From: Amoebophrya sp. A120
Taxonomy: Eukaryota; Protista; Dinoflagellata
Length of the DNA: 64,000 bases
NCBI GenBank assembly: GCA_905178155.1
Contig: CAJINV010000002.1
Coordinates: forward strand, 6,428,476-6,492,475
Direction: 5' to 3'
Numbering within the stretch: position 1 is the stretch's first letter; every line of letters starts with the position of its first letter. A program made the translations under genes and the position numbers. Of the stretch, positions 1-22,125 are shown piece by piece. Below the pieces are notes generated by a model that saw only the letters and a list, made by a program, of their open reading frames with translations, had not been told where the DNA came from and made no database searches.

Positions 1-294
1 GAGGTCGATTTGAGGTAGTTGTTACGTGTGGTTGGTCTTTCGGTTCTGCCTGAGTATTTCCTTTTCAGTCAAATATTTAGTCTTCTGAACTTCGACTTCT
101 TATCCTTATTTCTCGCCTATTTATTGGATGAAGCTAAACAGCGCCTCTGACTTATTAATGTTTTTGGCGTATGTGACTCATCCATATATCAATGTGAAGG
201 TCTTGTCGCAGGAGTCTGCATTTTTGTTGCTGTGCTCCTGGTTTTGGCTTTCTATATGTTTAGCGAGTTGGAATTGTTGGCTAAGGTTGGCGTA

Positions 295-454
295 ATTTGG
301 CAAAGTGGGATATGTTGGTGTGAAGTGTGTTGGAATCGTGGCCGGGAGATGATGGTGATGGCACTTCGGTGTCCGCCTGACCTACCTTCCCTGCGTGACA
401 GCCATCTGCGGCTGTTTACAAAGGGGGAGGCAAAGTGTGCCGCACTTCTGTTTA
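295..454 (+). mobile_element. Nested structured element, copy 1 (left limit unknown)
   Basis: Homologous to ~10425-10583; ends ...CACTTCTGTTTA directly before GCATGACAA of the host introner. Confidence 0.7.
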
Positions 455-660
455 GCATGACAAATTTGGATTCGTAGTGTAGTGCTGTTTGAGCTAGCCC
501 AGCAGCATCACGGATCTAGTTCATCATGCTGATTGGTGGAGGACAAATTGCAAAACGCGACGTGATCATGCTTCTCGTACGTGGGGCTCCGCATGAGAAA
601 CATTTTCAGCATGCAGATTTGCATTACAGCTATGGGTTGGGGACGTTTTTAAATACGATG
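455..660. mobile_element. Introner family B, right part only (left end outside window, interrupted by nested element)
   Basis: Aligns by eye to 7408-7612; ends GGGGACGTTTTTAAATACGATG. Confidence 0.75.
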
Positions 661-3600
661 CACAACCCTTGCAGTTCATCAAGCACAACGCGAAGCACCC
701 GGCGGCGGACACCGAAAACGCACAGCAGCAATTGAACATTCAGTGGGAATGGGACGACGTGCTCGTCAACCTCGGGTCCGGGGGGACGCCGGCCGGAAAC
801 CGCCCCAACCAAAACATCCGCGGGTATGTGAACGGCTTTTCGTGGCGACCGTCCGCGGAGTACGATTCCCGGCAGGGAACCACGGGTATCCTGTTCACGT
901 TCGGCTTCCGGTTCTACGGGACGCTGCGGGCGCCGCAGGGACGGGCGATCTTTTTATCGCAACCGAGTCACGTGTGGGAGGTCGCGACCTTGTCAACGGA
1001 TGGGGGCGCGACGGAGTGCGTCGGGGTGCAGTACAACCCGGGCGTGGGGCTCAAGTGCAACACGTTCAAGTACCCGGGGTACCAGGGGAATAACTTCGCC
1101 AACGGGATTTTCTTCTTCTACGACAGCGCCGCCACGGTTGCGATCGACACGAAGATCTCCCTAAGGCTGAACAACCCGAACGTGGCGGTCAACATGTTCT
1201 GGCTGGCGTATTCCTACCAGTACATGAACGGAATTATGCGGGCGCCGTTCACCATGGAATTAGACAAGCCGATCGCGTATCAACTGCAAATATGTCTGGG
1301 TCTGGAAAAGTTGGAATCTGTATTGCGTGTTTTGCACTCCTGTAAAATCTGCATTGCGTGACCGACAAAAGCGGGAATACTTTGTCATGCAAAAACGTAG
1401 TTTCTCATGCGCATTTCACATGAGGAAGCGTCCTGAAAATTTGTCATGCTTGGCTGCGCTCAGGAGTACGCTCAGTCATCGCAACTTAGCATCACAAGTT
1501 TCCAGACCCAGACATATATGCAATGCATATCGCGACGCAGGGGTACGGCAGTGGGGACGTGATCTCCACGACCTCCTTGGCGGTCAACGAAAAGAACAAG
1601 GTGACGCTGCTCTTCCGCCCGGGAAATACGGTGATTCCGATGTCCTCGGTTTTAATTTCAGGCTATCTCGTGATACTGCCGCCGACCGGCTTCCAAGTGG
1701 ATAGGACGGGTACGGGATTTTTTATTGTTTCATTTGCTGGAATTACAATTATGAATTAGAATTGTCGTCTTTGTTGTATGTAGTGAGGTCACCGAACGGT
1801 TCTAACCGGGGAGTTTTTTTGCCATCCAGCCAGCAAAACGCCCGGCAGTTTCCAAGCGGCCGGAGGGCTTTTTGCACAAAAAAAAATTTCAATTATCAAG
1901 CGGCTCTGGCTATGTCGGCACCGAATCGCCAGCGGATTCTATCGATCGCCGCTTGGTAAAACGACGCAGAGAAGCCAGCAAAAGGGGCGCCCTTCTGAGG
2001 CGCCCGGCGCACCTAATTCCGCCGATTTGGGGCGCCCAAAAAGGAGCGCGAAAAAAACGCGCCCAAAATCAGAACAGCGAAACAGCATGGCACGGCCGCG
2101 ATTTCGCAGCATTTTGGGCTTCCGCGAAAGCGGCCGCATTTTCGCCGGTTTCAGAGCCTGGGAAGCTTTGCAAAAAGCGCCGGCTAGAAAAATAAAAACG
2201 CAGAAAAGCAAAAGCGCGCCAGACACGCAAAGCCAATCCGCATGCTATGGGCCCGATTTTTCTTCGCTTTTTGGTCGCCCCCCGTGGCACCCGGATCGGC
2301 CCCATAACATGGGGGCTGGCTTTCGGAAAGGAACATCGGGAATTTGCCGAAATTTGCGACGTTTATCAAGCGGCCGCCATACCGTGCGGCCTAACGTTAC
2401 TCACGGCGGTGTGGCGAGCCCAGAAAAAGCAACGCCGCGGCCAAGGCGACGGCCGGCAAGAAAACGCCCACGACCTCACTACCTCCGCCCCGGCGGCTAT
2501 ATTTGGTAATGATCGTTTTCATACGAGAACTCGTTCTTGTACTAGGCACATGCATGCTGCAACGAAATATTAAGCGAAATGGTGTCCATCTCCTAAACTG
2601 TCAAATACAAAACTCAGCCGCCCCCTCTTCTGTCGCGGGCTACAATACCCTTCCGTGTTCCGAGTGGCCCGATGCGGACCAGCAGCAGAACCGGTGGCTG
2701 TGCAACCTTCGGGACATGGCCCTCTTTCGGGATGCGCAGTATGCCGTGCAATTGGGCGTGATCAACCCGCCACAGCCCATGATCAACACGGCGTGGCGGG
2801 TGGAGGTGTGGCAACTGGACAGGTCAAAGCCGCTTGCGACTACCCGGGAAATCCGAGGCATTTCCATCTCCGGCACCATGGTCGCGTCGTTTGAGCCGTT
2901 TAATCAGGTGCTCGGGAACACCAACAAGATCACGTTCAAGTTCCAACCCTCCCGAGATGTCACTATCGCCGCCAACGCAACCTTCGCCATCACGGCGCCC
3001 GCCGGGTTCCAAATCAGCAAACGGTGCGCGGGCTTTGAGCGAGGAACCTTGCCGGCCGACACGGTGTGCAAGGGCACCGATGACGTCGAGGCGCGGCTGC
3101 GGTTCCCGGGGCAGAACGCGATCAAGGGCGGGGAGCTGTACGAGTTCAAATTGGACGTGATCAACCCGAGCCAAAACTTGCTGAACACGCCAAACGTGTG
3201 GCGGTTCGACACGGTGCGCCCGGACGGCATTGTGAGCGATACGACGAACTATCCAGGTATAAGAAATTTTTTGCATTGAAGATTCATCTTGAGATCATGA
3301 TGTTCATGGGTTGCTAAATAAAGCGCAAGCATGATGATATCAGATCACAAGCCTTTTTGTACGTGCATAGAGAAGAATGGAGCGCAGCAGGCACGTGCTT
3401 ATAGAACCTCTACTTGCAGCCAATAAAACTTCCACCAGGTTTTTTTCTGTACCCCTCCGAGTTCGCCTCGTTTACCGTCGTCCCCAGCAGCCGGTTAGCC
3501 GGGGTGACCAGATTAGACGTTCGCTTTGTTTCAAAGGTGGGGATCGCCACCGGCTCTTACATCCGAATTATGGCCCCGATCGGGATCAAGTGGCACCGAA

Positions 3601-6600
3601 CGAATCCAGCGTTTTCCACCGCCTCCTCCGTCACCGGGACGAATTCCATGTCCACGGAAAGTCCAGTGATTGGCTCCAGCTCCGCGACGGACAACACGTT
3701 GGATAACATGCTCCTACTCCGGTTAACGCAAAACCTGTTTGCGGACTTCGAGTACGGTGTGGCGCACAACATCCTTGTCCCAGCTCTCACGCCGATCCCG
3801 AACCGGTACTGGATTGACACGTATGTGGAGACCGGCGACCCGACGGCCGGGGACTTCGACTACATTGCCAGTCTCGGCGCGCCAGGGTTCCGGACGCAGG
3901 CGCTGTTTAATACAGAGGTGATATCAAATGTAACAATGTCTGGGTCTGGAAGATTCCGGGATTTGTCATGCTAGTCCGGCATGACTCTGAGCTCTGTATT
4001 GCGTGGCCGCAAACGGCTTCTCTTGCCTGTCATGCAAAAACGCAGCTTCTCATGCGGAGTACGCAACTCTGAACCTAACCACGGAAAGACTTGTCATGCT
4101 TGGCAGTGCATTTTTACAGTATGCGCATTTTTCCCTGACTGGCATCACAAGTTTCCAGACCCAGACATTTTTGCACTTGATAGGTGAATGCGTACAACAA
4201 CGTGGAACTCGCTTGGAACAACCCGACGACCATACAGTTCGAGACCACGACCGCGGTGACGTCGATCTTGTCCGAACAGGGCACGGTGTTGAAGCAGGCC
4301 GAGCTGTACATCCAGGCCCCCCCGGGGTTCACTTTCATCTGCCCCACCGGCGGGTGGAACCCACCCACGCAGGTCATTCCGGACGGGTTCACGAAACTGC
4401 CCACGGACGCGGAGTGTTACATCAACCACCAGGTAGCGGAGGAGCGGCGCGTGGTGCACATTTTGTTCAAGACGGTTGGTTTGGCCATGAACACGAAGTA
4501 CATCTTCTTGGTGGAAATCGTGAACGCCGCGAGTGTGAACCCGACGACCAACAAGTTCGTCCTGGAGTCCCGGTTTGACAATGTGAAAGTCGAGGGAATC
4601 ACGATCGACGGCTACGATTTGGCGAAGCCGATGGCGAACACCCGGTACGCCGCGGCGGGCATGTTGGACACGGGCGAGGACAGAACGGTCGACGCCTACG
4701 ACAACCAAGTTTCTTTTGTCATGGGCGTCACGCAAAGGATGATCGCGAGCAGTGTGGTGGAGGTACTCAATAGAATCAACGCATAGCGTTGTATGATTTT
4801 TTTCTGCTAGTAGTACTAGTAGATCTACGCTATCTTCAGGACACCCATGACGCGGCAGATTGATGTGATGTGTGTGTCGGTTTCTTCTCTCTATTCACCC
4901 CATGGAAGTATCGTTGGGATGTTGGTGCTGAATTCATTGTACTGAACAGTGGAGCTGAGTTATTTTCAGATCGCTGATGAAATGACAGTAATTGCAACTC
5001 AACATCAAAATGTGATTCAAAAGGTCGGCGGCCCGACCGGTTTCCTGTTTTCCCCGCGTTGCATCGGGCACGTGGGGTGGGCCCAGAAGTTCGCCTCTGC
5101 CGAGACGCTGGTTTTCCCCGACGTGACGGAGTGCGTCTCAATGGCCGCGACCACCGGCGAGGGAAACAAGATCCGGATCACGGTGGCGACCGCCATGGAG
5201 ATCGGAGCCTATCCGTTCTTCGTGAAGGTGCAAAACCCGAATTTCAACATTCCCACGGAAAAAAACTACTGGACGATCCGAATCTACGAACCGGGAAGCA
5301 GCGTCGCCACCATGGCAGAGGCCTGGGTGGTCGGGTTCGATATTCAGGTATGGTTAGTTTGTAGAGTGAAGAATGGTGGACGAGGTCTTCTTCAGTATTC
5401 GGTTTTTGCTTTGTTATCGCGTTTGAAATGCAATTTCATTTTGTGTGTTGTGATGCAGTCGGTCGGAATCAATATCAATTGTATGCAAAATAAAAATATC
5501 TAGTGCCTATGTACTTATCATTTACAGGTCGTGAAAGACGTGGAGGTGTTCCCCTACAACCCGGGCAACGGCATTCCCGGCGAGGCCGCCCCGAACCCGC
5601 TGGACATTCGGTTTAAGCTGACCACGCGATTACCCTCGGTCTCCGAAGAAGCTAATGGAGCGCTGATATTGGTCGTGCCGCCGTTCGGGTTTCACTTCCC
5701 AAGTGTGTGCCGCACCTTCATGACGGACCCATACGCGGGGGATGCGACGAGCCCGTACATGGCTATTCCGTCCACGACAATTTGCAATCCGCCGGACTTG
5801 TACACGCCGGAACTGATTAATCTTTACTACAGGCTGGGACACCCGAACTTCTACCTGGAATTCGGACAGACGGAAACGGCGGTATAGAACAGCTACAATG
5901 ATGAATACCAGCTTTTTTGTTATTCGTTTCGCGAGGTGGAGGTGAATGAAGATCGGAAGTGGTTCATCTGTCACGGCACTTACTCACAATGAACTAGCCG
6001 TGCTCTACTTGTTGATAGAAAATGCCTGCTTTCTTCATTCAACATTCATATATGCAACAATCGGTGAACAATCTGCATATCAAAAGTTTCAACGATCGGC
6101 TACAGATTTCCGACGACATCCGTTGGGAGATTTATTTCCGGGAGGAACCTCCAGGCACGATTACGCGGATGTTCCGGGTGCGATCTGTGCCTGCCGGCGG
6201 GCCAGCGTACGCCAGATTAGTCCGCGCAGGGTACATCTTGGAGTCGATGACCTGCTTCCCCGAGGCCACGGGGGCGAACGGGGTGACCAGGCAAGAGGAC
6301 TGTCTGAACGCGGGGAAAAATTTCGCCGCCCTTGTGGAATCGAACTGCGGAACGATCGACGGACAGGTTGCGCTGGGCGCGACGCCGGCGATTCACGAGG
6401 CCTTTCTGAACAAGTTCGCGGATCGGGAAGTCGCGTTGGACCAAATTTCGGACTGCATCGCGCAGAAGGTGTGGAAGATCCACTTCGACGAGTTGTTGGT
6501 CCCCGTGGAGATGCGGCTCTCCGGCCCGGCACTGATTTTGAAGTTGGGAGAAAACACCCACATGGTGGCGGAGCAGCTGTACGCCTTCCGCGTGATGGTA

Positions 6601-9600
6601 GAGAACCCGATGCAGACCTTCGACAACGTGCACGATTTAACCCGGTGGTGGACCATTGAGACCCGCACGATGCCGAAGCCCAGCGTAAACAAGCGGTCGC
6701 AGATCAAGGACCGATTGGACTTGAATTACAAGGTGCACAGTTTCGCGGTGTACCCCAGGATCTCGTTGTTTCAGCTCCAAACCTTGAACTACATTGGGCA
6801 AAGCGAGACCGATGTGAAAATCTCCTTCGACATCATTTCTGATTTAGCCCCGCAAGCGACCATTCTCATCACCGCCCCCACGGAGTTCCAGTTCCGCGTT
6901 TGGCGGGGCGAGAACTCGCTGACTTTCGGCGACCCACCGTTGCCCAGCTACCCCTGGAACCCGCCACGCGATGGGTCGACCGGCCTGTTTTTGAACGTTT
7001 TACCGGACGGCACGGCGCACAGGCCCTGCATCTCGCCGTCGATAAGTGCGGCGGACTACCAGGTGATGGACCAGTTGTTCCCCAGGAGTGCGATCAAGGA
7101 CATCACGCGGTTGCCCGAGTACGTGTCGTGTGTCGTGATCAATGCGTACCAAATTATGATCACCAACACGGAGCCCGTTCGTGGCGGCCGGACTTTGATG
7201 GCCGGACCGGTGTATGAGTTTCTGATTGATGAAGTAGTGAACCCGCCGCGCACACCCTTCACCGCTTCAAACCTGTGGCGGATCGTTGCGAATACCACTA
7301 CCGCGCTCGGGCAGGAGGTGTGGGCGACGTATCCTGAGTAAAAACATCCCCACCCCATAGTCAAGATGGGGAATCTGCTAGACAAATCAACAAGCTTAGG
7401 TTGTTGCGCATGACAAATTTGGGCTCCTAGTGTAATGCTGTCTACGTCGTCCAGCAGCATCACAAATCTAGCCTATAATGCTGATAGATTGGAGCATTAC
7501 AAATTCCAAAACACGACTTGGAAATGCTTCCCATGGGTCTCCGCATGAGAAACATTTTGAGCATGCAAATTTGCATGACAGCTATGTGCTGGGGACGTTT
7601 TTACATAGGATACGACAGAGGGGTGGGTCATCTTTCCGGAATTGGCCATCACGCGAATCTCCAGCGACAACCCGGCCAATGGGCTGTTTACGACGTTCAC
7701 GATTCAAGTCGGAGTGTTGACCACAGTCCCCGGCCAGGGATCGATTCTGCTTCGCGCCCCGCGGGACGACTTTTACTTCGGGCCACGACTGGCGTTTGAC
7801 GGACCGCCGCCGGATCTGCTGAACCCGATCCCCCGCGCGTCTGGGGGCAGCCCGCCGAGGCCGGCGAAGGGCGGCCCGGACCTGCCCTGCACCATCGAGG
7901 CGCCGCAGCCGCAAGGGAATCTGCAGTTTATCTGCCCGATAACCAAGACGCCCTGCGAAGAGGTATGAACATAGGATTTGGGCCGTTTATCGTTTTAGTG
8001 TAGAAGTTGTAAGTTGTCTAAGTGCACTCTTACGTACAAGAATCAATTTGATGTTCTTGACAAGGGGGAGTATCGTATGAAAGATGAAACATAAATTACT
8101 AGTAGTAGCATCCTGGTGTCTACTGTTCCTTTTGTTGAACAAATCACAGAAAGCGCGGCTCGAGGCCTTGGACCTCGGGCGTTCTGCGAAGGACCAGCTG
8201 TATGCGCAGGAAATTCAGGCCCTGGAATTTCCCTGTCAGCAAGTGACCGCGGACTGCGCGTCGCGGCGGTACGACAAGTTGTTCTCCTGCAAGTACCGAA
8301 CGATTTTGAAGGAACAGGTAATGACGCCCGCGGAGCTCCAGGCAAACCAGGACCTCGTGACCGCGTGGAACTCGGCGAACACCAAGCAACTGACCTGGGA
8401 ACCTTTCGAGGCCCAACTGGAGATCACGCTCGCGACGGACATTTCGATGAAGCAGGACCAGGTGTTGACATTCTTGCTCACCGGGTACAACACGCTGTAT
8501 CGGAATTTCACCGCGTGGCAGAACGAATTTACGTTTTCCACCAGAAACGCGGACTCGGGGAAGACGACCCTGGATGAGCGAAAAGGCGTGCCCGGCTTCA
8601 AGCTTTTCGGTGTGGTATGGATTGCAAAAATGTCTGGGTCTGGAAGAATCCGAGTTTGTCATGCTAAATCTGATCGATGCAAAAATCTGTATTGCGTGAC
8701 CAGCAAAAGTCCTCAGTTTTGGTTACCAGAAGCCGGCATTTCTCATGTGGACTTAGCATTGCATAGCCTTCTCAAAACTTGTGATGCTAGAGCCCACATT
8801 CCAGACCTTCTGGGTCAAGCAAAATATGGATGACAAACCCGGCAACATTCCAGACCCAGACATTTTTGCATTTGATATGTGGTCTACGTCAGCAAAATCG
8901 ACGCGCAGGAGACGAAAGTGTCGAACACCTACAACCGGGTGGAGATCACCTTCCGGCTGACCAATCCGGTGAAGCAACGAGGGCTAATTATTCTGAGGAA
9001 AAACATCCCCACCCCAGAGTTGCCATGCAAATCTGCATGCCAACAAAGTTGCTCATGCGAAGCCCCATGAGAAGCTATTTCTAGTTGTGTTTTGGGATTT
9101 GTGATGCTAGGAATAGCATGATATGCTAGATCTGTGATGCTGCTGAACTAGCTAAACAGGTTTGCACTACGAGGCCAAACTTGTCATGCGAAGCAACCAA
9201 AGTTGGCTGATTTGTCTAGCAGATTTCCCATCTTTATTCTGGTATGGGGACGTTTTTACTCAGGATATTAATCCGGATCCAATACCCTACGAAGTTCGAA
9301 CTCCCGCCGCAGTCCGGCGGCGGCGCGGGAACCAACACGATTGATGTCAGTGAAACCGTGCCGAGAAAGGCGAAGCGGAGCCAGAGGGGGAACATCATCG
9401 AGTTAGACAGTGAGGACGAGGACTTCCCAGCTGGGTTAGACATGATGATCACGATCACTTTGTCCAATCCCGACATCTCCCCCGGGCCATCGGAGAACAT
9501 CTGGATCTTTGAGACGTTTGAGGTGTCGCCACAAGCACCAACGGGAACGACTCCGCCCGCCTCAGCGCTGACCATGATCGATTTGAACCGAGACGTGCAG

Positions 9601-12600
9601 GGATTCCGTATAGGCTCTTTTCGAAGTAGAAGGAAGATGCTTTTTTGTTCGTATGACTGAAGTGTCTGAAGATGCAGATGCTGATTCAGTATGACAGTAG
9701 TCGCATGAGATGTGGTTTTTATTTTGCCCAGCAAGACGCCAGTAAAACAATTTTAAGGTATTTACGGCGCGTTCCGTTCGACGAACGTAATTTCCACCAT
9801 TGACTCTCCGACTGTGGTGAACAAAGTCGCCGTCATATGCGAAGAAAAAAGTGTTACATTTACACATGGTGTTGCAGGCAACGCAAGACAGACAAGTTGT
9901 GTCATGCTGGATATGCTTAGGAGCCCGCTTCCATATTACGTGTTTATTTATTCCCTAGTGGTCTCTGCACTGCAAGTTTTCTCTGTCGTGCGGAGAAAGT
10001 TCTTTGTGTTGCTGAAGTTGCAACAAGCGTGTAACTACTGTAACATTTTTTTCTTGGGATACGGGACTTTCGTCCTCGAATCCGATCTCCGGTTTATTCC
10101 GTGCAAAAACGTCCCCACCCCAGAGTCAAGATGGGAATTTTGCAAAACAGATCCAGAAGTTTTTGCGGTTGTGCATGACAAGTTTGGGTCAGTAGTGTAG
10201 TGGTCCTTGGCTAGTGAAGGCACATCACAAACCTAGCTCCTTATCCTGATTGGAGCATGACAAAGTCCAAGACAGCATGAGAAAATGCTTCTCATGGGCC
10301 TCCGCATGAGAAACATTTTGAGCGTGCAGGTTTGCATGACAACCGCGTCGTTGTACTTGAGGATGTGTTATATGTCTCGGGCGCACGTACATACTAGCCT
10401 GCAGGGACGGCGGAGCCGGAAAAAATGGCACAGTATGGTTGGTGGCGAAATCAGAGTTGGAATATAGTGGCCGGGAGATGATGGTGATGGCGCTTTGGTG
10501 TCCGCCTGACCCACTCGCCCTGCGTCTCAGGCCACCTGCGGCTATGGCACAATGGGGGGGCAAAGTGCGTCGCTTTTTGTTTAGCATGACAACAACGGGG
10601 TGGGGACGTTTTTACATAGGATACGGCTCGACCCAACCGCGCGCTTGCAGATCTACATGCCTGTCGGCTTCATGCCCGTCGAGCTCTGCGGCGACTGGTC
10701 CCGGTCTTACCAGGACGGGAATCTAGTCTACACGGAGATCCCCCGTGGAACGTCCTGCCGCGCGATTAGCGACCCACTGGAGCCGGCGATCGAGTTGCGG
10801 CCCGGGGCGGTCTATGGATTGCAAAAATGTCTGGGTCTGGAAGGTTGCAACTTGTCATGCTAACTTTGGATGCTAAAAAAATCTGTATTGCATGACCAGC
10901 AAGGGGAACCAAGTTTGTGCTACGTGGGGAGGGCATTTGTCATGCTGTAGGGGCATCACAAAGCGCTCTAAAAATCTGTGATGCTACGGCATGCATCACA
11001 GACATCATGGGTCATAGAAAATATGCATGACAAATCTAGAAATCTTCCAGACCCAGACATTTTTACATTTGATACGGTCATCCAGTACGGGTTGGACTAC
11101 GCGTTTCAATTTGAGTATGGGACTGTCAGGATCGAAATCGACAAAATCGAAAAACTTGTGATGCACAAAATCGATGCCAGTTAGACCCACAGTTTGTAGT
11201 CGGCGCATGACAAATTTCCCTCGTCCTGGAAGCGAATCTGTCATGTGGTTTAGGACAAAAGAGCTTCCCTCTGTCATGCTTGCCACCAGCCCAATTCTTG
11301 ACCCTTAGCAGGACTACAATCTGCCTCCTTTGCGTTCTCTGCAATAGAGTCACTTTTTGTGTCGCATTTTCTGCATGACAGATTATTTCGACTTTGTCGA
11401 TTTCGATCCTGACACATCCATATTGAGGTCATCAATGCGGCTTATATCACGGACGAAAACAACTGGCGGTTCCAAACCATGCTGAACAACGTGGTCCTGC
11501 ACTTGGACAGAAACGTCTTTGGGTTCTCGCTGCAGGAACTGCAGGACGTATAGTTTTGTTTTTTGATTTGATCTTGAACTTGATCATGAAGAAGAAGTTT
11601 GTCCCACCCCCCGGGTGGCATAATTTTGGATGTTACAGGTCTACTTGTTCCTTTGTGTATGATTTATTACACGGGTCGTTTTGAGCAACTACGTAGATAT
11701 TTATGATGTCATTGGAGTACTTCTTGTGGTTCTGTAGTGGTACTAGTAGAATCCATGCTCTCGTCAACATCAATCAGATTTCCGTCCAACCCTACGACAC
11801 CACTCGTTCCGTGATGGGTCGATTGGCCGTGCAGATGCGAAGTACAAAGCTCATCACCGGCGCCTTATGGGAGTGTCAGGTTTGAAATCGACAAAGTTGA
11901 AACAACTTGCAATGCAGAAAATCGATACCAGTTGGAAGCCCAATTTTCAAGCAATGCATGACAAATTTTCCGAGCACCGGAATCCAATTTGTCATGCTGT
12001 TTGGGCACAGACGACTGCTTTTGTCATGTTACTTTAGCAGCTCTATCTCAAACCCTAAGCAGGCTGACAGTCGGCCTCACTTGCCATCCCGGCAAGACAG
12101 GCACTTCGTGCCTTGCATTTTATGCATGACAAACTATTTCAACTTTGTTGATTTCAAACCTGACGCTTCCATACGCATCCGACATTGTGATCACCGCGCC
12201 CATCGGGTTCAAGCCGCTGATATCGCAAGAAAAAACTGTTTCACTGTAAACTTGTAATGCAGAAACTGCATCTCAGAAGTGTTTGTCTTGCTACACATGC
12301 AAGACAGGCGATTTTTAGCTGTGTTTTCCCTTAGGAACCTCGCATGGCAAGTTTTCCCTGTCATGTGTAACGAACTTGTCATGCCAAACTTGCAAAATCC
12401 TTACAGTGAAACACTTTTTTCGCGCGATAGCTGAACACGCTGTTCACCATCCTGAACATTCCCGGCGGACACACGCTCGCTTCCACCACCACGTCGACCA
12501 AGGATAACAACAAGGTGACCTTCACTTTAGATTCCCAGGACCGCGTCGAGCCGAATCTGATGTTCGGGGTGGAAGTGTGGATCACCAATCCCGAGTTCAC

Positions 12601-14281
12601 GCCCGCAGATAACGTGTGGAAGTTCGAGATCACGGATCAGGCCAAGAATTTCATCGATATCAAGCAGCAGTTATCAAATGCAAAAATGTCTGGGTCTGGA
12701 AGATTGGAACAGTTGTCATGCACATTTTGCATGACCCATGACGCCTGTACTGCATGACCCAGCATCACAGATTTTGTGAGGGCTTTCTGATGCCTGAATA
12801 CCCCCTCCGCTGAGCAAAAACTGGACTCCTCTTGCTGCTTACGCAATACAGATTTTTTTCGAATCCAAAGACAGCATGACAAGTTCCATCCTTCCAGACC
12901 CAGACATATTTGCATTTGATAGCAGTACCCGGGTTACGACATCACGGGCGCCATGTTCACGGACGTGAAGGCGTATCGCAAGAAAAAACTGTTTCGGTGT
13001 AAGCTTGTGATGCAAAAAATGGAAGAACACAGAGGCATTTGTCTTGCTACCCATACAAGACGAGGGATTTTCAGCCGTGTTTTCCCTTAGGAATCTCGCA
13101 TGGCAAATTTTCTTCGTCATGTGTAACGAACTTGTGATGCAGAACTTGCACAATCTAAATCCATGCCGTGAAACACTTTTTTCGTGCGATAAGGCGGGGT
13201 TTCCCACAAAGTCCAGGGCAAACGTGATTGAGGTGATCTTCGTGCCGACCACCATCATGAACCAGGCGGACTTCGAGAACATTTTTTTCCTGAAGGGCCC
13301 GGCCGGGTACCGGTTTCCGCAGGTGTGCAACCCGGAAATTTTCGACCTGAAGTACACGAACCCGATGGAATATCCAGGAAAAAAAAATGTGCAAGTGTAA
13401 CTTCATAATGAAGAGTGGCATCTACTTCACAAATTCGTTTTGCATTTTTACGGTCAATAACCTGTCATGCGCAGCTAGTACGTGGAAACGCGTATGAAAG
13501 TTGTGGCCTATGACACACATCCAGCATGACAAGTGTAAACAGTGTTGCATTTTCTGCATTTCAGACTTACATCTACACATTTTTTTTCTTGCATATGGAA
13601 CTGGAAACGAGTTCCATGGGCCAGCAGGCCAAGGACACGGTGTTCCCGCCGGACAATCTGCAGTGCATCGGCTCCGGGAACGAAACGGTCACCATCAAAT
13701 TCCCACGCGGCTCGGGGCTGTTGGTTTTCAACTACACATTGACCCTGGAAGTGATGAACGTATCACATGTGCAAAAGAATATCATACTTCTTTCGATACT
13801 TTAATTGCAATCTTCTTGCATGACGGATTTGTGTTTGTCTCCCTCCGAAGGCAAATCAGCATTTACAAAATCCACATCAATATTTGCTCAGCAAGATCTA
13901 CTTGAGTAAATTTGTCACGGAGAAATTTCATACAGATAGATAGTGCGATCATACTTTTGCAATGCATAGAAGGCAGCGGAAGATCACGTGGAGAACATTT
14001 GGCACTTTGAGACCAGGAAGAAGGGCTCCTCAGCGGAAACGGCTTACACTATTGTCGATGCAAACCGGACGATTCCCGGCTTCAGACTGCAGGACTTGGA
14101 ACTCGCACCGGAGGAAGCGGGGTACGCGAGTGGGCGGTTTGGGGTCTCGGTCTGGAACACGATAGTTCCTTTGCTGAGTGCATTGCTGCTGGTGATGCTG
14201 AGCAGTGGCGGGACATTCTTTGGGGGGCGGCTTGGAGAGGACCAGCAGGGGACGAGAGCGGGGCGAGGCAGGAGGCGATAG
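661..14281 (+). CDS. Giant repeat-module surface/secreted protein (5'-partial, >2380 aa, 24 exons in window)
   Basis: Exons 661-1277,1535-1709,2618-3256,3439-3921,4188-4762,5024-5347,5528-5881,6106-7329,7618-7962,8150-8615,8883-8988,9273-9607,9758-9835,10067-10094,10629-10812,11080-11115,11428-11547,11778-11865,12179-12220,12435-12671,12927-12973,13197-13370,13601-13760,13974-14281 join in one frame (8 GT-AG introns, 15 TIR elements). Recurrent module I-x-x-P-x-G-F..C..LP..C..Y-x-F..V-x-NP..N-x-W. C-terminal hydrophobic stretch IVPLLSALLLVMLSS. Function unknown. Confidence 0.85.
1278..1529. mobile_element. Introner family A (TIR TATCAAATGCAAAAATGTCTGGGTCTGGA)
   Basis: TSD TCGCG/TCGCG; removal gives PIA-TQGYG. 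Confidence 0.92.
1790..2510. repeat. GC-skewed, homopolymer-rich insert inside canonical intron 1710-2617, probable decayed TE
   Basis: Abrupt compositional shift from the AT-rich intron flanks; weak end similarity TCACCGAA..CCGGGG / CCCCGG..TTGGTAA; boundaries approximate. Confidence 0.45.
3922..4182. mobile_element. Introner family A
   Basis: TSD GGTGA/GGTGA; TEV-NAY; can be read as GT-AG 3918-4183. Confidence 0.93.
7330..7612. mobile_element. Introner family B (TIR TATCCTGAGTAAAAAC[AG]TCCCCAC)
   Basis: TSD CGACG/CGACA; WAT-EGW. Confidence 0.92.
8616..8877. mobile_element. Introner family A
   Basis: TSD TGTGG/TGTGG; FGV-VYV. Confidence 0.92.
8989..9267. mobile_element. Introner family B, opposite orientation to 7330
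   Basis: TSD CTAAT/TTAAT; GLI-RIQY. Confidence 0.9.
9836..10061. mobile_element. Introner family E-like, aged
   Basis: TATGCGAAGAAAAAAGTGTTACA / TGTAACATTTTTTTCTTGGGATA; TSD CGTCA/CGGGA; frame restored. Confidence 0.78.
10095..10623. mobile_element. Introner family B carrying a nested 250-bp insertion
   Basis: TSD CGGTT/CGGCT; 529 bp minus 250 bp gives 279 bp, the normal family size. Confidence 0.88.
10344..10583 (+). mobile_element. Nested structured element, copy 2
   Basis: Flanked by direct repeat GCATGACAAC (10334-10343, 10584-10593); 3' ~160 bp homologous to 295-454. Confidence 0.8.
10813..11074. mobile_element. Introner family A
   Basis: TSD CGGTC/CGGTC; GAV-IQY. Confidence 0.93.
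11116..11422. mobile_element. Introner family C (TIR TATGG..TGTCAGGATCGAAATCGACAAA)
   Basis: TSD TTGAG/TTGAG; QFE-VIN. Confidence 0.93.
11866..12173. mobile_element. Introner family C
   Basis: TSD CGCCT/CGCAT; TGA-SDI. Confidence 0.92.
12221..12429. mobile_element. Introner family D (TIR TATCGCAAGAAAAAACTGTTTCAC)
   Basis: TSD GCTGA/GCTGA; KPL-NTL. Confidence 0.93.
12672..12921. mobile_element. Introner family A, opposite orientation to 10813
   Basis: TSD GCAGT/GCAGT; KQQ-YPG. Confidence 0.93.
12974..13191. mobile_element. Introner family D
   Basis: TSD AGGCG/AGGCG; VKA-GFP; GC-AG reading possible. Confidence 0.93.
13371..13595. mobile_element. Introner family E (TIR TATCCA[AG]GAAAAAAA..GTGTAA)
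   Basis: TSD TGGAA/TGGAA; PME-LET. Confidence 0.9.
13761..13968. mobile_element. Introner family H-like, aged
   Basis: TAT..TGCAAAAG / CTTTTGCAATGCATA; TSD GAACG/GAAGG gives GT-AG 13760-13972. Confidence 0.8.
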
Positions 14282-15774
14282 CGAAGGAGGTCATGATCCG
14301 TCGGGGACGGTACCTATTTCGTGGTGTCAAAACAACTTCGTTGTAGTAGGAACTAGGAACAAAGATGCACACAAACAGCTACTGCTGGACTTTTTGTACG
14401 CAAAAAGAAAAAATTTCTGTTGAAACCGAGAGCATAACTCTACCTTAACGAAGATCTTCACTGTCATTGTCAAACCCTTGTAAGAATTCTTCAAGGCTTG
14501 CCGTTTCCGCCCAAGCCCTCTGATAAGTTTCTGCCAAATAACAAAGAAAACCCATGCGCTTCCGACGGATAATAAATAGGTCAAGAATATAGCCTACGCA
14601 GCTTATTGGAATTGATGAACTTGCACTGGAAAGAGTCGTCGAAATCTTTTGTAACTGAGCTCAACCTGGTTCTTGCTTTTTTTCCCTCATATACAACAAA
14701 CTGCGACCTTTTTTTTGTCTCTTGAATTCATCACACTTTGAAAATGAGTAAATGCAAATAGAATTGACGAAATTATCACAACCAGCAGGCTTGTTGTCCT
14801 GGAAGTTCAGGCACATGTGCTCTCCATTTGCTCCTGTGCGCTGTGGTTCTAGGGCATACAACCCGCTGGTTGCAGTCACTAGGTAAAAATGAGTTAATAT
14901 TCCTCAGCGGTTTTTCCGCAAGACTTCTGATCTTTCGATTATACGCAACCAAATTTGATGAGGAGAATCTTCTATCAATATTTACAACCTCCAATTGGGT
15001 CCTCCGATGCAATGGTTCTTAATCTACTCTTCACAAAAGTCGAGAGGTGGTAAGTATCTATCTTCTACAGTATGAAGCAAGAGGACGCTGAGATGCAGAC
15101 GGCGACCCATGCTGACGTACCCAAAGTCAGGATGCTTTGTTTCCTCGATGGTTGTTGTTCTTTGTGGAAGGACAAAGGACCAGGTTCCTGCGCAGGAGCA
15201 GCATATCAGTATGCAGAGAACTAATGTGCTGCACCTACTGGTGAAAAGCACCGACAGCACAGGAAGAAGATCTCCAACACACCACACGAAAGATCTGTTT
15301 TTCTCTCAAAAAAGAAGTTGTCCAGTCTTCGTCGACGACGATCTCCCAAACACGACCTACGTCAATTGTTTCACTATTTCCAAAAAGCGCAGCAATAGCC
15401 AGCAACAGATGTAGGAAGGGGTTTAATTAGTGTTGAATCTGCGTGGTCTGCCGCACAGTAGGAGAAACAGTTCGCGGTGATATCTCTCCAGATACTTGTT
15501 TACAAACTGATTAGGAATATTGTAGTAAATGTAAATGTACGTCGTACGTAATTACACAAAAAGGCAAACTCGACGTCCGTGCGAGCTTGACTTTTCTGAA
15601 ATTTTTTTTCGCTTCAGGCCGTAGCTCGGCTGAGTTCTCTTGCCTGCGGTTCGATATAGTAACTACTTCATCACAGAAGTAGTCCACCTCAGTTGCTTGC
15701 GACTCTGCTGTACAACAACTTCCGGATTTTTTCAATTTTTTTGTAGCCCCATAAGCGTAAAACTTGTCGCAAAG

Positions 15775-18700
15775 ATGACGACGATTCTCGCCTCCGGGCT
15801 GCAGGTCAACTTCGAGAAGTTGTACCAGTCGATGCTATATGCATTGCAAATTTGTCTGGGTCTGGAAACTTGTGATGCAAGGAAGGAAATAGTGACAGTA
15901 AGCACACTGTTGTAATGCGCTGCCAAGCATGACAAGTTTTCTCGTGGTTCTGAGTTGCGTACTCCGCGTCAGAAACCGCGTTTTTGCATGACAGGCAAGA
16001 GGAGCTCTCTGCGGCCACGCAAAATACAGAGTTCGGAGTCCCGTGCCAGACTAGCATGACAAATTTCGCAATCTCGCAAAGGACCGACACAGACATATTT
16101 GCAGTCGATATGGGATTCAACAATTTTCAGCTGAGCATGAAACTTCCCAACAACTGGCTGACCAACGAGCTCGATGTGTCCAAATTCCTGAACGCGAAGA
16201 TTCAGAACGAGATTTTGAAAATCTCTCGGTCCCACAGCCAAAGAATCAAGCCGATTTCCACCGCGGCGCAGAAGAAGCTGGAAGACGAAAATTACTATGG
16301 TGATAATCATAATATTAACGTGACCCCGGAGCAAATTATCGAGGAGGAAAACCGCATTGAGACGCGGAGGATTTTGTTCCTAAAACCAACCCGGATAAAG
16401 TTCTCGCAGCTGGTAGTGTACCCAGTTTTTGGAAGCGGGAAGCGCGGGCGGGAGACGAAGGAGCACGGCGGGCAGGCGCTGCAAGAGGCCGAGGCGACCA
16501 TTACTTGCAGCGCGTTCACCGGGTTCACGGAGGAGATGATGGATCTGCAGGAGAAGGAGCGGGACACGTTTCAGACGTTGCTGCAGGAACAAAAAAACCG
16601 GATCCGGGAAGAAGGATGGAAAAAGGCGGAGGAGAAGATAATTGCGCCGGCAGCTGCACCAGGTACGTACTGAGGGTTTGCATTTGATTGTATGTACTTA
16701 TTCGAATTTAATCATAATCTACCGACGTAAAGATCGTTTTTTGAAACGACAAACAGAACAAGGGATCAGACGGTAGATTATATACTCGACACGTTTCAGC
16801 AATCAAATGCGGCTGAATTTTTGTCCACTCGACACACGTCGACCACAGGAGCCTCATCCATTCAAGTACCGCTCGCGGGTAGTTCAAAGGAATCGGTGGC
16901 AGGGCAGATCGCGCAATCGAACGAGCAGCCGTTGCCGTCGCCGCCGATCGAGTCCGGGCCGGATTGGAATTCTGCTGAGGGGGTTGCAAGGAAAGACATG
17001 GCGGAAAATGTCGCCAAAGCAGGGCTTATCAGATGCAAAAATGTCTGGGTCTGGAAGAAATCAGACGTTTGTCATGCATTTTCTACATCTACAAAAAGGT
17101 CTGGAATGCACACAGAGCATGACAAACTCTGTGGAGGCTTCTCCATGCCTATTCCGCATGACAAATGCCCTCTTCTGGAGACAAAATTCGGGTACCTTTC
17201 GCTGACTACGCAATACAGATTTTTGCCTGTTCCAGAATCCGCATCACAAGTTCGCATCCTTCCAGACCCAGACATTTTTGTATTTGATAGGGCTTTTGGG
17301 GCAAGGTAAAATATCTTTGATGTTGGGCTTGTTGTTGTCATGAAACGATGAAAAATCCGCGGGCCACTACATCACTACGTCTTTTTCGATTTTTGGGTTT
17401 GGTTTTGGTTTTCCATGGAAGTATGGCGGCGCGAGCTCATTTTTTTTGAGAAATTTTTTTTTTTCATATGCCATTTAAATGCCTAGCAATATGTGCATTT
17501 ACTGGCCCCATTACTGTAGCGCCCCATTACTGGCTAAGCTTCGCGCGCCCGTCTTGTTTTAGGGCTCGGGGGATTCCGTTTTGCCTTCCTGCGGAAGGTG
17601 TCTCGGGGGCCGCCATTTCGCCTTCCTTGCCCTCTGGTAGGTCTCTCCCTGGCGGAAGGACCGCTGCTTGATTGCCTCTCTGGGGAGTGTGAGTTGTTTA
17701 TTTCCTGGCTGGCGCGAAGCTTTCGCCATCGACTCCAGATTGATAAATGGCCCGAGCTTATTGACACCTCCTGCGCGACGTGGGTGGTTCGGGGTTTTTC
17801 TGTGCCCGGGCTCGCCGAGGCGTTTTGGATTCGGCTTCGGAGCGCGCAGGTTTGCGGCTGTCCGGGGCTGTGCGCGTGTGCTTACAGCTTTTGCGCCGGG
17901 GGCCCCGGGTTTTTTCTTTTGTGTCCCGGGGCCTCGTCGGCCTCGTCACATCTACGCCCCGGGTCCCCGGAACATGCATGGCCCGTCGGAAGGCAGGCCA
18001 GCCTTCGGTAAAGGTAGGAAGGTGAGGGGGTTGCAAGGAAAGACATGGCGGAAAATGTCGCCAAAGCAGGGCTTTTGGGGCAAGGTAAAATTGCTTTGAT
18101 GTAAGTGGTTGAGCTTGTTGTCATGATGAAACGGTGAAAAATCCGCGGACCACTACATCACTACGTCTTTTTCGTTTTTTGGGTTTGGTTTTCCATGGAA
18201 GTAGTTCCAAATGCAAAAATGCCAAGAATCATGATGGCGACACGACTGACACCACCAGTCAATAAAAAAAAAACAGTGAACATCCTAAACGAGCCCTGGA
18301 TTCGGAACCATGAGTGTTTCAGGAAGGTTTCATATCCAAGAAAAGAACATTGTGGGTGTAACTTTGTTGGAGGAACAGCATTACAAATGTGTCTGGCATG
18401 ACAGCAAAAACCTGTCATGCGCAGATAGTACGTGAAAACGCCCTTGAATGGGCTCTACAATGCATGCCCAGCATGACAGACGTAATCATCTTGCATGTTG
18501 CGCATCACAAATTTACACTAGCAACGTTTTTTTGTTGGATATTTCAACGTGGAAAATGGTCCACCGCTACGTGTCGTCCGTGGCGCTCACGTACGTGCAG
18601 ATGTTCGGAACTGAAAAAGCTGCCGAGGCAGTGAAAAAGCGCACCACCCCCGCGTACGTATCAACGGACCCGAAAGAGCTGATTTTGGGACCGGACCACA

Positions 18701-21700
18701 GGGATCACCACAAGATCCAGCACCAACTCGACCCGCAGAGAATCGACCACGATGTGGACCCGGCGAAATTCATCTCCCTCGAGGAAGCTCTGGGAACACA
18801 GGTAATAACGGATTACGCGTTCACGGATATGCGCCACTTGCGAATTCCCGCGCAGAACGCGAACTACATCCGAGATGAGTTCCGGAAAGTCTTGAAGGAG
18901 TGTGTGGAGCACTATCACAAGCACTACGACAACCGAGGAATTTCGCGGGCACTTCCGCCTGACAACACGGAATTCAGTGGTGAGCGAAGCTTTCCGGCGG
19001 GCGTTATAAAAACATCAAAGGGCGGACCACAACACGAAGTTCCAACTTTCGCACAAGAGCAGGCGGGAGGCAGTAGCAGCAGTAGTTACTACCACAAGAA
19101 TCCTGCTCCTACTAGCGCAGCACCTCCGAACGGCGACGCGGCCCTGCGGGACTATATGGTCCACCAGAGTAATAAAAACAAGGGAAATATTAAAAATGCA
19201 GCAGCGGCTGCATCTATGCAACAGCAGAGCAACATGAAAGGCGGCGGGGGCAAAGGTGCGAAGGATAAACAATACATGATAGAGCAGTACCACCTCGCTC
19301 TGCAACGGGAAAGAGAGCAGAAAAAGATGCAAACACAGCAAATACCGACCAATTCTTCGATGTTGGCCAATCAGTCGCAAGACGAGCAAGCTGCTGCAAT
19401 GCGACGGCCAGAGGCGATGGTTCCTCCGGCGCCGGGGGGTGGTATTGGTTTTCCACCAGGTTACGAAGCTGCTGCTGGGCCGCCGCAACCGCCATCCTCG
19501 CAGTACATTCTGCAACAGCAGCAGAACTACGCGCAGATTCCACCTGGGATGAAGCAGGGTTTTATTGCAGAGGAAGAGCTAGGAACATCAAACGGAAAAG
19601 GCAGTGGAATGAAGGGACTGTATCAACAACAGCCAGGAGCGCAACAGCAGCAGCTGCAGCAGCAATTTAACATGCACCAGACGGAGCAGAGTTTCTACAA
19701 AGGCGGGCCGCCCATCATGAATAGTAAAGCTACTCCTGTTCATGTTCATCCTGCTGGGAGCAGTAGTTTCGGAGGTGGTGGTGGAAAACAAGGCGGCAAT
19801 AAAAACGGCAAGGACCAGCAAACCTACTCCAAGGGCGATTACGTGCGCATGCTGCAAGAGAAAGGGTACCGAATTCAGAAGGAGGGGCAGCATCAAGCGT
19901 GTCCGCCCGAAGATGAAGGGATACAAGGTAGATTACGTGAACAAGAAGACGCTGAAGGAAATTCTGCAGCCATGAGAAAGAGCACCGCTAGTACTGGGAG
20001 GAAAACAAGTGCATCTTCACGAGCAGGGCCTTCTGTTGTTGACAACCAGGAAATGAAGCAACGCTACTTGTTCTCCAACACGGACGAAGGACCAATTGTG
20101 AAACAAGAGCAGGCTACTTTGTTAGAAGAGGACGCCATGGACCGTGAAGAAGTTGAGCTTCCCATCGAGCAAACTCGGTTGATTCCCTTTTACGACGAGG
20201 GCGGAGCAAAAATAAACCTAGAACAACCTCTGCTGTCACGAAGACTCTTCGAGGGCGAGCACACGATGCAGGAACAAAATGATAGAAGAGACAACAACAC
20301 CTACAACAGTCCGGCGGCTACTGCAGGAAATAAAGAACAAAAGAAAAACTACCAAAAAACTACTCCCGCGCATTTCTTTTCCCCCACGAAACGGAACCAG
20401 AAAGCCGACCGGCCGAAGTACCTGCTGACCCACCCGTTCCCGGTCATCCGGGTGATGAAGCACCGGCCGAAGATCCGGGATTCCAATGGAAAACCGGTTA
20501 TGGACAAGAGAACGAACCAAGTGAAATTGGGGAAAGAGGAGTGGTTCTCCGTCGACAACCGCAGATTGCTCTGCTTGCAAAGGCGAGCGGTTCTGTACGA
20601 AGAATTGTTTGACATTGACTGCTATCAAATGCAAAAATGTCTGGGTCTGGGAGCTTCCGAGACTTGTCATGCAGATTTTCCATGATCCATGTCGTATGGA
20701 ATGCAGCACCTAGCATGACAGATTCTGTGAGATCCCTACCATGCGTATCCTGCGTGAGAAACTCCCTGCCAACTTGGTCGAAAGTGGACAGCTTTTGGCA
20801 CGCATGCAACACAGATTTCTGCATGATCCAGAATTAGCATGACAAGTTGCAACCTTCCAGACCCAGACATATTTGCAATCCATAACTCCTACGTGACCGG
20901 CGTCGAGATGTTCGACGACACCCACTTCTCCGAGATCAAAAAGTTCCGCACGCGAACCAACGGGGAAACCATCGAAATTGGGTTTTACAAGGGCCACGGC
21001 CGGGCGAACGTCGGGCGGGATACAAAAAACAACGGGGGGGCCATATTGCAATGAAAAATGCCCCCACCCCCGAACTCGGGAGCATTTGTATTGCAAACCT
21101 TTCCAAATGAAACATTCGCCCTCTTACATCTATCAGCATCACAGATTTCCGATCGTGAATAGCAAAAGTTTGTATTGCAAAAGATCCTAGCAAGAGCGGC
21201 GCTTGTCATGCAAGCGATGCGACACACACCTAGACTCTGCATCAGAAAGGTTTATACTCCTTTCATGCATGACAGAAAGTTTTCATTTGGAAACTTTGCA
21301 TCACAAATTTTTGCAACTTTGGGGGTGGGGGCATTTTCCTCGCGATAGACCAGCACGGATAACGAGCAGGCGGAGAAGAAAGATGAGCGGTGGTACTGGT
21401 GTTGGGAGGCGAACGACTGGAAGTTGCACGTCACTGAGAAGAAGGAGAAGAAGATCGGCATGCACAATTACATGTGGGATCACCTGCAGGCAAGGGATTT
21501 TGTCAAAACCTACGTCCGGAAGAACAAAAGGTATACTATACAGTTTTCACAACTTATCTAAAGTACTTTCTGAGAGACTTGTTGCAGCACTGGATTTGAG
21601 ACAAAATGACGAAGATTATTCGATTATAAAGACACTACATTTTTATGTAAATTAAAATTACAAAACTACAGCGACCTGCCCGACCCGGGTGAACTGCTGA

Positions 21701-22125
21701 AGCCACACATCTGGATCGACCCAGAAGCGATCCAGTGTGTCCACCTGGACTGCGGGTTGTGGGAGTACCGGGTAGGCAACGAGTCTTTCGGGCCTTTCTC
21801 GAACATGCAAATGCAAACCTGGGCGGCCCAAGGGAGGCTTCCGCCGAGTCTGCCCTGCCGAAGGAAGGTGCACGAGAAGCTCCGCCTCGAGGCCGCGGAC
21901 AGCACGGAGGGTGGGTCGTACTCGTCGCCTGAAAGGGTACTTGGCACGGTGGACGGCACCGGGAGGCGCAAGCAGCTCGCGAGTCCGCAGCTGCTGCACG
22001 AACACAAGACGTGGCACCCCGTGTCGAGCTACCATGGGTTCCAAGCTAGTGTCGAGTACGATGACCCGCTCTTGTGTCCGGTCGACGCGGACGACCAAAC
22101 CCTGCAGGACCTGCAGGGAGAATGA
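15775..22125 (+). CDS. ~1240-aa protein with split ParB/Srx-like motifs, Q-rich linker and C-terminal GYF-like domain
   Basis: Exons 15775-15837,16116-16662,16849-17026,17295-17305,(optional 18022-18084),18277-18332,18547-20622,20890-21043,21353-21530,21672-22125 join in frame. Motifs KPTRIKFSQ..YPVF, FPVIRV, FSVDNRRLLCL, KFRTRTNG; GYF-like WEYRVGNESFGPFSNMQMQTW. Domain calls are by motif recognition only. Confidence 0.7.
15838..16110. mobile_element. Introner family A, opposite orientation to 3922
   Basis: Interior is the reverse complement of the 3922 copy; TSD TGCTA/TGGGA; frame restored. Confidence 0.85.
16976..18203 (+). repeat. Direct duplication (16976-17423 vs 18023-18203) flanking a ~600-bp GC-skewed insert
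   Basis: Both copies run TGAGGGGGTTGCAAGG...TTCCATGGAAGTA; only the first contains the introner; insert 17424-18022 has T-runs near its left end. Confidence 0.9.
17027..17289. mobile_element. Introner family A
   Basis: TSD GGGCT/GGGCT; empty-site paralog at ~18069-18073. Confidence 0.95.
18333..18541. mobile_element. Introner family E
   Basis: TSD TTTCA/TTTCA; KVS-TWK. Confidence 0.9.
20623..20884. mobile_element. Introner family A
   Basis: TSD ACTGC/ACTCC; sister of 63169. Confidence 0.92.
21044..21347. mobile_element. Introner family G (TIR TAT.GC...GAAAATGCCCCCACCCCC)
   Basis: TSD GGCCA/GACCA; GGA-STD. Confidence 0.88.

Follow-up and report, generated by a model that had tools for sequence, protein, structure and literature searches.

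The window analysed here, by which we mean the whole 64-kb stretch of DNA, is eukaryotic and carries short exons interrupted by repeats of 250-280 nt with terminal inverted repeats (TIRs). The ends of these repeats read TAT, seven variable bases and a run of A, and the repeats fit the published description of the introner elements of Amoebophrya A120, in which the inverted repeat is composed of TAT, seven variable bases and at least three A (PMC7789003). In one contig guessed to be RNA-derived (X3), a neighbouring introner is skipped, with position 1271 joined to 1529, as would fit splicing of these repeats. Both insertions found in the window (copies 1 and 2, see below) lie in one very large gene (about 600-17000) that has many exons and repeated segments rich in beta structure; there was no Pfam match among those of its frames that were scanned. 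Elsewhere, Pfam matches were obtained for a Tpt1/KptA RNA 2'-phosphotransferase (55744-56595; PF01885, E 5e-27) and for a GYF domain (21610-22122; PF02213, E 3e-10).

Seven introner copies in the window belong to one family, here labelled family B, of which five are empty and two contain an insert. The copy at 45547-45826 (- strand) served as pre-insertion reference in the alignments, and further empty copies lie at 7330-7612, 8989-9267, about 53245-53570 and 61490-61768. The right part of the introner that hosts copy 1 (455-659, + strand) is 88% identical to the reference, and the introner that hosts copy 2 spans 10095-10623 (+ strand). Introners of several families contain the motif GCATGACAA, which occurs 51 times in the 64-kb window when about 0.5 occurrences are expected. 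Related internal 9-mers are found in unrelated introner families, namely GCATCACAA (27 times in 64 kb) and GCATTACAA (13 times), again with about 0.5 expected for each, and a 9-mer common to unrelated families may be a site for a transposase, for chromatin or for a splicing factor.

The earlier note on this DNA had placed the fixed end of a nested element close to the start of the window, and this end could be assigned to the junction 454|455. The sequence to its left is a multicopy element that sits inside TIR introners of the Amoebophrya A120 type, with 338-454 as its conserved 3' end. Copy 1 occupies 1-454 (+ strand), has its 5' end to the left of the window start and carries neither a poly(A) nor a simple-repeat tail. 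Copy 2, which by alignment to the empty host is a 5'-truncated insert of 240 nt (10344-10583, + strand), agrees with the second copy of the structured region that had been proposed, present at 10426-10592 with 77-80% identity. Together with two copies from metagenome contigs (L001 and L002), four copies were fully read. Copy 1 and L002 form one subfamily (A, 98% identity), copy 2 and L001 the other (B, 93%), and identity between the two is 78-82%. When a covariance model built from these four was run over 84,787 bases, nothing beyond them was recovered, the next best score being 10.9 bits.

The 3' end of the element is constant, as TGTTTA directly abuts GCATGACAA in all four fully read copies. 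Alignment to empty hosts identified the motif as host sequence, duplicated to the left of each complete insert. For copy 1 the target motif at the 3' junction, GCATGACAA-N-T-Y-TGG (455-469, + strand), is the first motif site of the host introner; copy 2, L001 and L002 each used the last site of their host. Both types of used site share a 15-nt consensus that has six matches in the window, all in family B, where the target site is written GCATNACAA. Every filled site (4/4) is in a family-B host, though this family holds just 11 of the 50 distinct motif sites in the window. Two of the three long contigs of X1 that reach the 3' end, among those listed, run on into the motif; the match of the third (record 7) ends at 454, which confirms the end and indicates that target specificity is probably imperfect. 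A few extra bases, resembling a local duplication of AACAAG, follow the last motif of the family-B introner at 53517-53545, the site that the nested element uses, and are a possible abortive insertion or footprint.

The 5' ends differ among the three complete copies, with inserts of about 98, 130 and 240 nt, and copy 1 exceeds 454 nt; the shortest insert, L002, begins at the equivalent of 356, within the structured and conserved block described below. Target duplications also vary: 10 nt in copy 2 (left 10334-10343; right 10584-10593, the last motif site of the host; both + strand), 12-14 nt in L002 and about 6-9 nt, with one mismatch, in L001, so that insert plus duplication amounts to 250, 111 and 138 nt, respectively. 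Contigs of X7 showed 5' junctions at about 236 and 354, each with the target motif just before it, and contigs also break at 366, 382, 419 and 422 among those listed, where mixed loose ends were unreadable. A contig of X1 contains a tandem joint from 463 to 338, and the letters in between start with the continuation of the target, which we read as a duplication of 17 nt. Another X1 contig joins 383 to 361, with six letters added, so that the hairpin 1 region is duplicated internally.

Comparison of inserts with their hosts showed that the element pair with 98% identity resides in hosts that are 76% identical, at two different motif sites, and that the 93% pair resides in hosts that are 65% identical. 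Near-identical inserts in diverged hosts indicate separate insertions, each after host divergence, and together with the different motif sites they rule out hitch-hiking with the host. A TIR DNA transposon was rejected as well, given that copy 2 lacks inverted repeats at its ends and that 5' ends vary. There was no L1-type poly(A) or simple-repeat tail in any of the four copies, all of which end in TGTTTA on the target. All four are in sense orientation to the host gene, as are two of the five empty hosts, and this bias is not significant. The signature of target-primed reverse transcription is a 3' end shared by all copies, with ragged 5' ends and duplications of variable length (PMC4640811; PMC8557442), and the fixed 3' junction, varied 5' ends and varied duplications observed here point to a sequence-specific form of this process, from which we infer that the enzyme is a reverse transcriptase (RT). 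The left duplication of L001 (about 1419-1430) reads GCATAACA and the right one GCATGACA, and the loose end at 354 in X7 has on its left GCATAACAA, a variant with just three sites in the window. This left/right mismatch in L001 and the independent X7 junction raise the possibility that the 3' flank was copied from RNA.

Summed DNA contig depth was 3000-8800 over the core (338-454), 86-366 over the upstream part and 41-46 for single-place contigs. Contig sets X1, X2 and X7 derive from one DNA sample, perhaps from the same source as the window, and summed depth in X1 jumps from 366 to 5957 at 337, a 16-fold step that together with the copy alignment delimits the core common to all subfamilies. 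These values suggest that the core is present in copies on the order of 100 and the upstream part in a few, as a rough figure, given that depth is no copy number. A step this abrupt need not mean gradual truncation: the upstream parts may have diverged, or one 5' end may be preferred. Upstream sequence is homologous between subfamilies over at least 40 nt and again at 123-186, so the element unit exceeds the core. This second conserved, foldable block (123-186, + strand) belongs to the low-copy part, and record 17 of X6 matches both 123-186 and 329-412 with unlike sequence between them. The stretch, which was picked post hoc, folds as a long stem-loop (z -4.3), and the indels of other copies within it fall in the apical part.

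The element does not appear to encode a protein. Its frames are broken and shifted between subfamilies and its indels are non-triplet, and on these grounds we rejected it as coding sequence; the two longest + strand frames of the copy 1 region (19-147 and 151-477) had no Pfam match. No RT or endonuclease open reading frame was detected among 95 translated frames compared with Pfam, a subset of the 288 frames of at least 95 aa, and none is expected in the copies read because they are truncated. Viral contigs gave just two isolated 18-nt matches with unlike flanks, and bacterial and archaeal genomes gave no match. Contigs guessed to be RNA-derived (X3 and X6) span parts of the core and are uninformative on ends, strand and level, while the raw-read runs X9 and X10, with one matching read each, missed the exons too and are uninformative on expression.

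Conservation between subfamilies is concentrated in the block 338-382, where 43 of 45 and 44 of 45 positions are identical, versus 49 of 72 and 52 of 72 in the rest of the core. Part of the lower identity outside the block stems from imperfect gap placement at 413-432, and the Fisher p of about 3e-4 applies to block limits set by eye after viewing the sequence. For this block, the best conserved of the element, we predict a protein-binding kink-turn of the snoRNA box C/D type (344-383, + strand; pair table and shuffle test). The modelled structure comprises a short C-stem, in which G344-G346 face C381-C382-Y383 (344-346/381-383), and a 4-nt loop (347-350); the noncanonical pairs G351.A380, A352.G379 and U353.U378, which lie outside the NC stem; and the NC stem itself (354-357/374-377), with an AU bulge and capped by hairpin 1. 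Stem and hairpin were also obtained independently with RNAalifold. The C-like box AUGAUGG (349-355) is invariant in the three copies that reach it, the D box CUGA (377-380) is invariant in all four, and the succession of tandem G.A/A.G, U-U and G-C (351/380, 352/379, 353/378, 354/377) is present, at the level of sequence, in the three copies that contain both strands. Stem changes at 383 (U/C), 363 (A/G) and 372 (U/C) all preserve pairing.

A C/D descriptor, written post hoc after viewing the sequence, matched once among 20,000 dinucleotide shuffles (15 times when its limits were loosened) and in one of 547 tiles of the window; that tile contains copy 2, and copy 1 is divided by a tile edge. 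The C-stem has 3 bp and the loop 4 nt rather than the canonical 3. In single-sequence folding, the ensemble probability of the C-stem and kink-turn pairs is 0.00-0.19, owing to a competing hairpin, and the standard folding program leaves sheared pairs unscored. Box C/D kink-turns stay unfolded unless protein is present (PMC5689011). Typical members have G-C at -1b/-1n, U-U at 3b/3n and G-C at 4b/4n, and the block carries these same values (PMC5689011). A SNORD62A construct that bound 15.5K, whose oligonucleotides we paired here, has the same GGG-AGAU-GA / CUGA-CCC junction with a 4-nt loop (PMC5579392). The D box and the C that follows it (within 377-382) create a GAC, and in some human snoRNAs methylation of the adenine in this context prevents 15.5K from binding (PMC5579392). 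A name search of one supplement file gave no host Snu13. Judged by its sequence, and given the retroelement class, the block probably holds a box C/D kink-turn. Neither this motif nor the target specificity had featured in the earlier note.

That note had described three hairpins kept in the copies, and these fared unequally. Hairpin 1 (360-373, + strand; RNAalifold and pair table), with a UUCG or UUUG loop, retains all five pairs in the four copies, and hairpin 3 (433-447, + strand; consensus fold), located 7 nt before the 3' junction, retains pairs in 23 of 24 cells; the positions given for both stand. Hairpin 2 as a 6-bp stem at 398-415 is specific to copy 1: just a 3-bp GCC/GGC core (401-403/410-412) is kept in all four copies, and position 413 is C, with loss of the pair, in 1635 of 2582 of the X1 contig depth. 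The C-rich/G-rich helix that had been seen to enclose it is maintained, with one two-sided change (387/428, U-A versus C-G). Outer helix and 3-bp hairpin (401-412) together form what we call domain 2 (385-430, + strand; RNAalifold consensus), the inner arms of which are unlike between subfamilies and which alone gives z values of -3.6 and -2.2 in subfamily A and -0.1 and -0.6 in subfamily B. The reported compatibility of substitutions with G-U pairing on the + strand holds for one-sided changes, and the consensus fold is slightly better on the + strand (-23.7 versus -21.2 kcal/mol). The fold energy of 340-454 is not beyond chance (z = -1.12, 28 of 200 shuffles as good), nor is that of three copies beyond shuffles (z = -0.9, +0.3 and +0.8). 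Covariation, the check that the note had proposed, is not significant on four copies (71 of 500 shuffles reach the score), as expected because the four sequences represent two effective lineages, the two subfamilies.

Three identities had been suggested for the structured end, and of these an RT-recognition 3' end fits the fixed 3' junction, the variable 5' ends and the target duplications. The proposal of a ribozyme found no backing, since the Rfam search put forward with it returned no match over 340-447 even at E up to 10 and no descriptor matched. Across the 64 kb, Rfam gave no match at gathering score, five weak matches in 1-700 and none for copy 2. Loose descriptors for hammerhead, HDV-like, twister and pistol ribozymes gave 0 of 20 hits in strand-pattern tests, blank on both strands, in line with the observation by eye that no hammerhead or HDV core was evident. 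An intronic ncRNA gene is not supported as an identity for the copies, as they are cut inside the structure (L002 from the equivalent of 356), and an intronic ncRNA is conceivable only as a route by which the template RNA arises.

Other known classes were considered. Terminal C and D boxes flank a guide of 10-21 nt in box C/D guide snoRNAs, and the element was rejected as one of these because its boxes enclose a self-paired hairpin, because no second CUGA precedes the 3' end and because there was no Rfam match. It was also rejected as a SECIS element, which has an upper helix of 11-12 bp and unpaired AA in the apical loop, its own arm being 4 + 5 bp with a UUCG/UUUG loop. No SINE head (tRNA, 5S, 7SL or snRNA) was matched by Rfam in the available parts, which end short of the element's 5' end. 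The hammerhead motif found near the 3' end of Penelope-like elements was absent from the 454 nt of copy 1 (Rfam and descriptors), as it is from some Naiads and most Chlamys (PMC8557442), and, of the partial tandem or inverted arrangements typical of these elements, one tandem joint and no inverted copies were seen.

We consider it highly probable that the structured region is the 3' terminus of a target-specific retroelement, one that is parasitic on introners. As a whole, our preferred reading, to which we assign a probability of about two in three (0.68), is that 338-454 is the right end of an introner-homing element, likely inserted by target-primed reverse transcription, with a predicted C/D kink-turn. 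The + strand RNA, derived from a full-length copy or a host intron, would end at or just past TGTTTA, and an RT/endonuclease of non-LTR type (or Penelope type), the product of another locus, would bind its 3' end. This enzyme would nick the bottom strand at the G of GCATGACAA, before the motif, reverse transcription would halt early at variable points to give ragged 5' ends, and a second nick 6-17 nt downstream would give the target duplication. Since insertion restores the target on its right side, tandem copies can form, and because the target is a spliced-out repeat, the insertion niche is safe, transcribed and very abundant. Hairpin 3 and domain 2 are predicted to be the RT-facing 3' signal, and the predicted kink-turn may bind a host protein of the L7Ae family (Snu13/15.5K), by which the template RNP would be stabilised, protected or localised.

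A bolder version of the same idea, which we regard as unlikely, is a promoterless retroelement that mimics snoRNAs, in which sense copies would be freed by splicing, the kink-turn would stop trimming near 338 and the flank would guide homing. Bound by Snu13, the kink-turn would halt 5' trimming such that any copy with an intact core could become a new template, and read-through into GCATGACAA would allow the RNA to pair with the nicked target, and so to home to introners. On this view, the 16-fold depth step at 337, the invariance of the kink-turn, the four sense copies out of four and the mismatch in L001 would all be accounted for. Conversely, the retroelement could be the same with its C/D-like boxes and hairpins merely incidental, the block being a primary-sequence binding site for the RT or recently homogenised, with no binding of an L7Ae-family protein. 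The near-zero fold z-scores, the rarity of kink-turn pairs in the ensemble, the non-significant covariation and the post hoc origin of the descriptor all favour such a reading; we nonetheless find it doubtful, as boxes, U-U/G-C signature, a 9-pair NC arm and C-stem lie in register within one invariant block and box C/D kink-turns remain unfolded in the absence of protein (PMC5689011).

The core might also be a host small RNA gene (snoRNA-, snRNA- or klRNA-like), with one intact source locus that serves the cell, for instance in this lineage's unusual splicing, and with retrocopies spread by a target-specific RT, as in SINEU. The sharp depth step at 337, which leaves a core of about 117 nt, the C/D boxes, the placement of all four copies sense to the host gene and the report that U1 snRNA was undetected in Amoebophrya (PMC7789003) would agree with this. 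We hold it to be quite improbable, however, given that upstream homology between subfamilies (at least 40 nt, and 123-186) makes the unit longer than the core, that at least two subfamilies are about 20% diverged, that Rfam gave no match, that both a terminal D box and a guide arrangement are absent and that the sense bias is not significant compared with empty hosts (2/5 sense). A DNA-based element (HUH rolling-circle, IS200/605-Fanzor-like or target-specific cut-and-paste), with the hairpins as ssDNA structures or a guide scaffold, would explain a fixed end beside a constant motif and the lack of an RT in the frames scanned, but variable duplications with variable 5' ends are unexpected for these classes, there are no terminal inverted repeats and variants favour G-U pairs on one strand, all of which makes it very improbable. 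Still harder to credit is a new self-cleaving ribozyme that releases the element RNA from the host transcript: R2-type elements co-transcribed with their target require such a release by self-cleavage and the block is invariant, but it is located at the fixed 3' end, it matches no known model or loose descriptor and the kink-turn already accounts for its invariant nucleotides.

Retroelements that home into non-autonomous DNA transposons are already known (PMC4494074). The closest precedent for an introner-homing retroelement is crocodilian SINEU-3/Tx1-Mar in Mariner MITEs, where 313 of 347 SINEU-3 copies lie beside Mariner-N4_AMi (Kojima 2015, PMC4494074) and where 5'-truncated copies, a 16-nt duplication, tandem copies that sandwich the duplication and two preferred host sites have been described. 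Both systems place a retroelement at fixed sites of a non-autonomous TIR DNA transposon, with 5' truncation, tandems and two sites; in contrast, the element described here resides in an alveolate, in introners that are spliced, and is targeted to a short motif of which each host has several. Its RNA is predicted to carry a C/D kink-turn, and no head derived from an snRNA was detected. Tx1L of Xenopus homes to Tx1D and Tx1-9_AMi to Harbinger (summarised in PMC4494074), Tx1 being an animal clade, and these elements, as well as RLE-type R2 and Utopia, share with ours a precise 3' boundary, a variable 5' boundary and a multicopy safe-haven target (PMC4494074; PMC4640811). The likeness to Tx1, R2 and Utopia lies in the ends of the copies. 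Penelope-like Naiad and Chlamys elements similarly combine target-primed insertion, variable duplications, strong 5' truncation and tandem copies, whereas the target here is neither a microsatellite nor a telomeric repeat (PMC8557442).

The predicted RNA motif resembles the kink-turns of box C/D snoRNAs and of klRNAs/ktRNAs in its RUGAUG/CUGA boxes, tandem G.A pairs and U-U followed by G-C (PMC5579392; PMC5689011), and klRNAs/ktRNAs in its intronic location (bioRxiv 10.64898/2026.08.03.742641). The searched text of the latter held no link of klRNAs to transposons. The element differs from snoRNAs and klRNAs in that its boxes close a 21-nt hairpin without a guide, in that 75 nt of a longer, mobile RNA separate them from the 3' end, and in that it is likely spread by retrotransposition. 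A snoRNA-derived retroposon of platypus is a further partial precedent. The word "nested" is absent from the main texts of PMC7789003 and PMC12130899, and a search through the text of supplement files (12 of the 14 of PMC12130899 and one more) gave no match to the conserved motif of the element. Word searches of the open-access literature returned no description of insertions nested in introners or, mostly from listings, of a kink-turn in a retroelement RNA. What is new is the target, an introner, and an RNA with a predicted snoRNP-type motif.

Both claims could be tested at low cost, the target being 15 nt and the RNA end 117 nt long, and builders of R2-type insertion tools would take an interest in a new RT system with sequence specificity. 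Nested inserts could also explain why automated pipelines gave non-LTR labels to some Amoebophrya introner families, as we infer from supplement rows of PMC12130899. Should the kink-turn prove real, the element would be a mobile RNA that recruits a core protein of snoRNPs and U4, a link that our literature word searches did not return. More generally, the element adds a second tier to the introner story, in which a retroelement homes into the very repeats that created the introns of this lineage, by way of their repeated motif.
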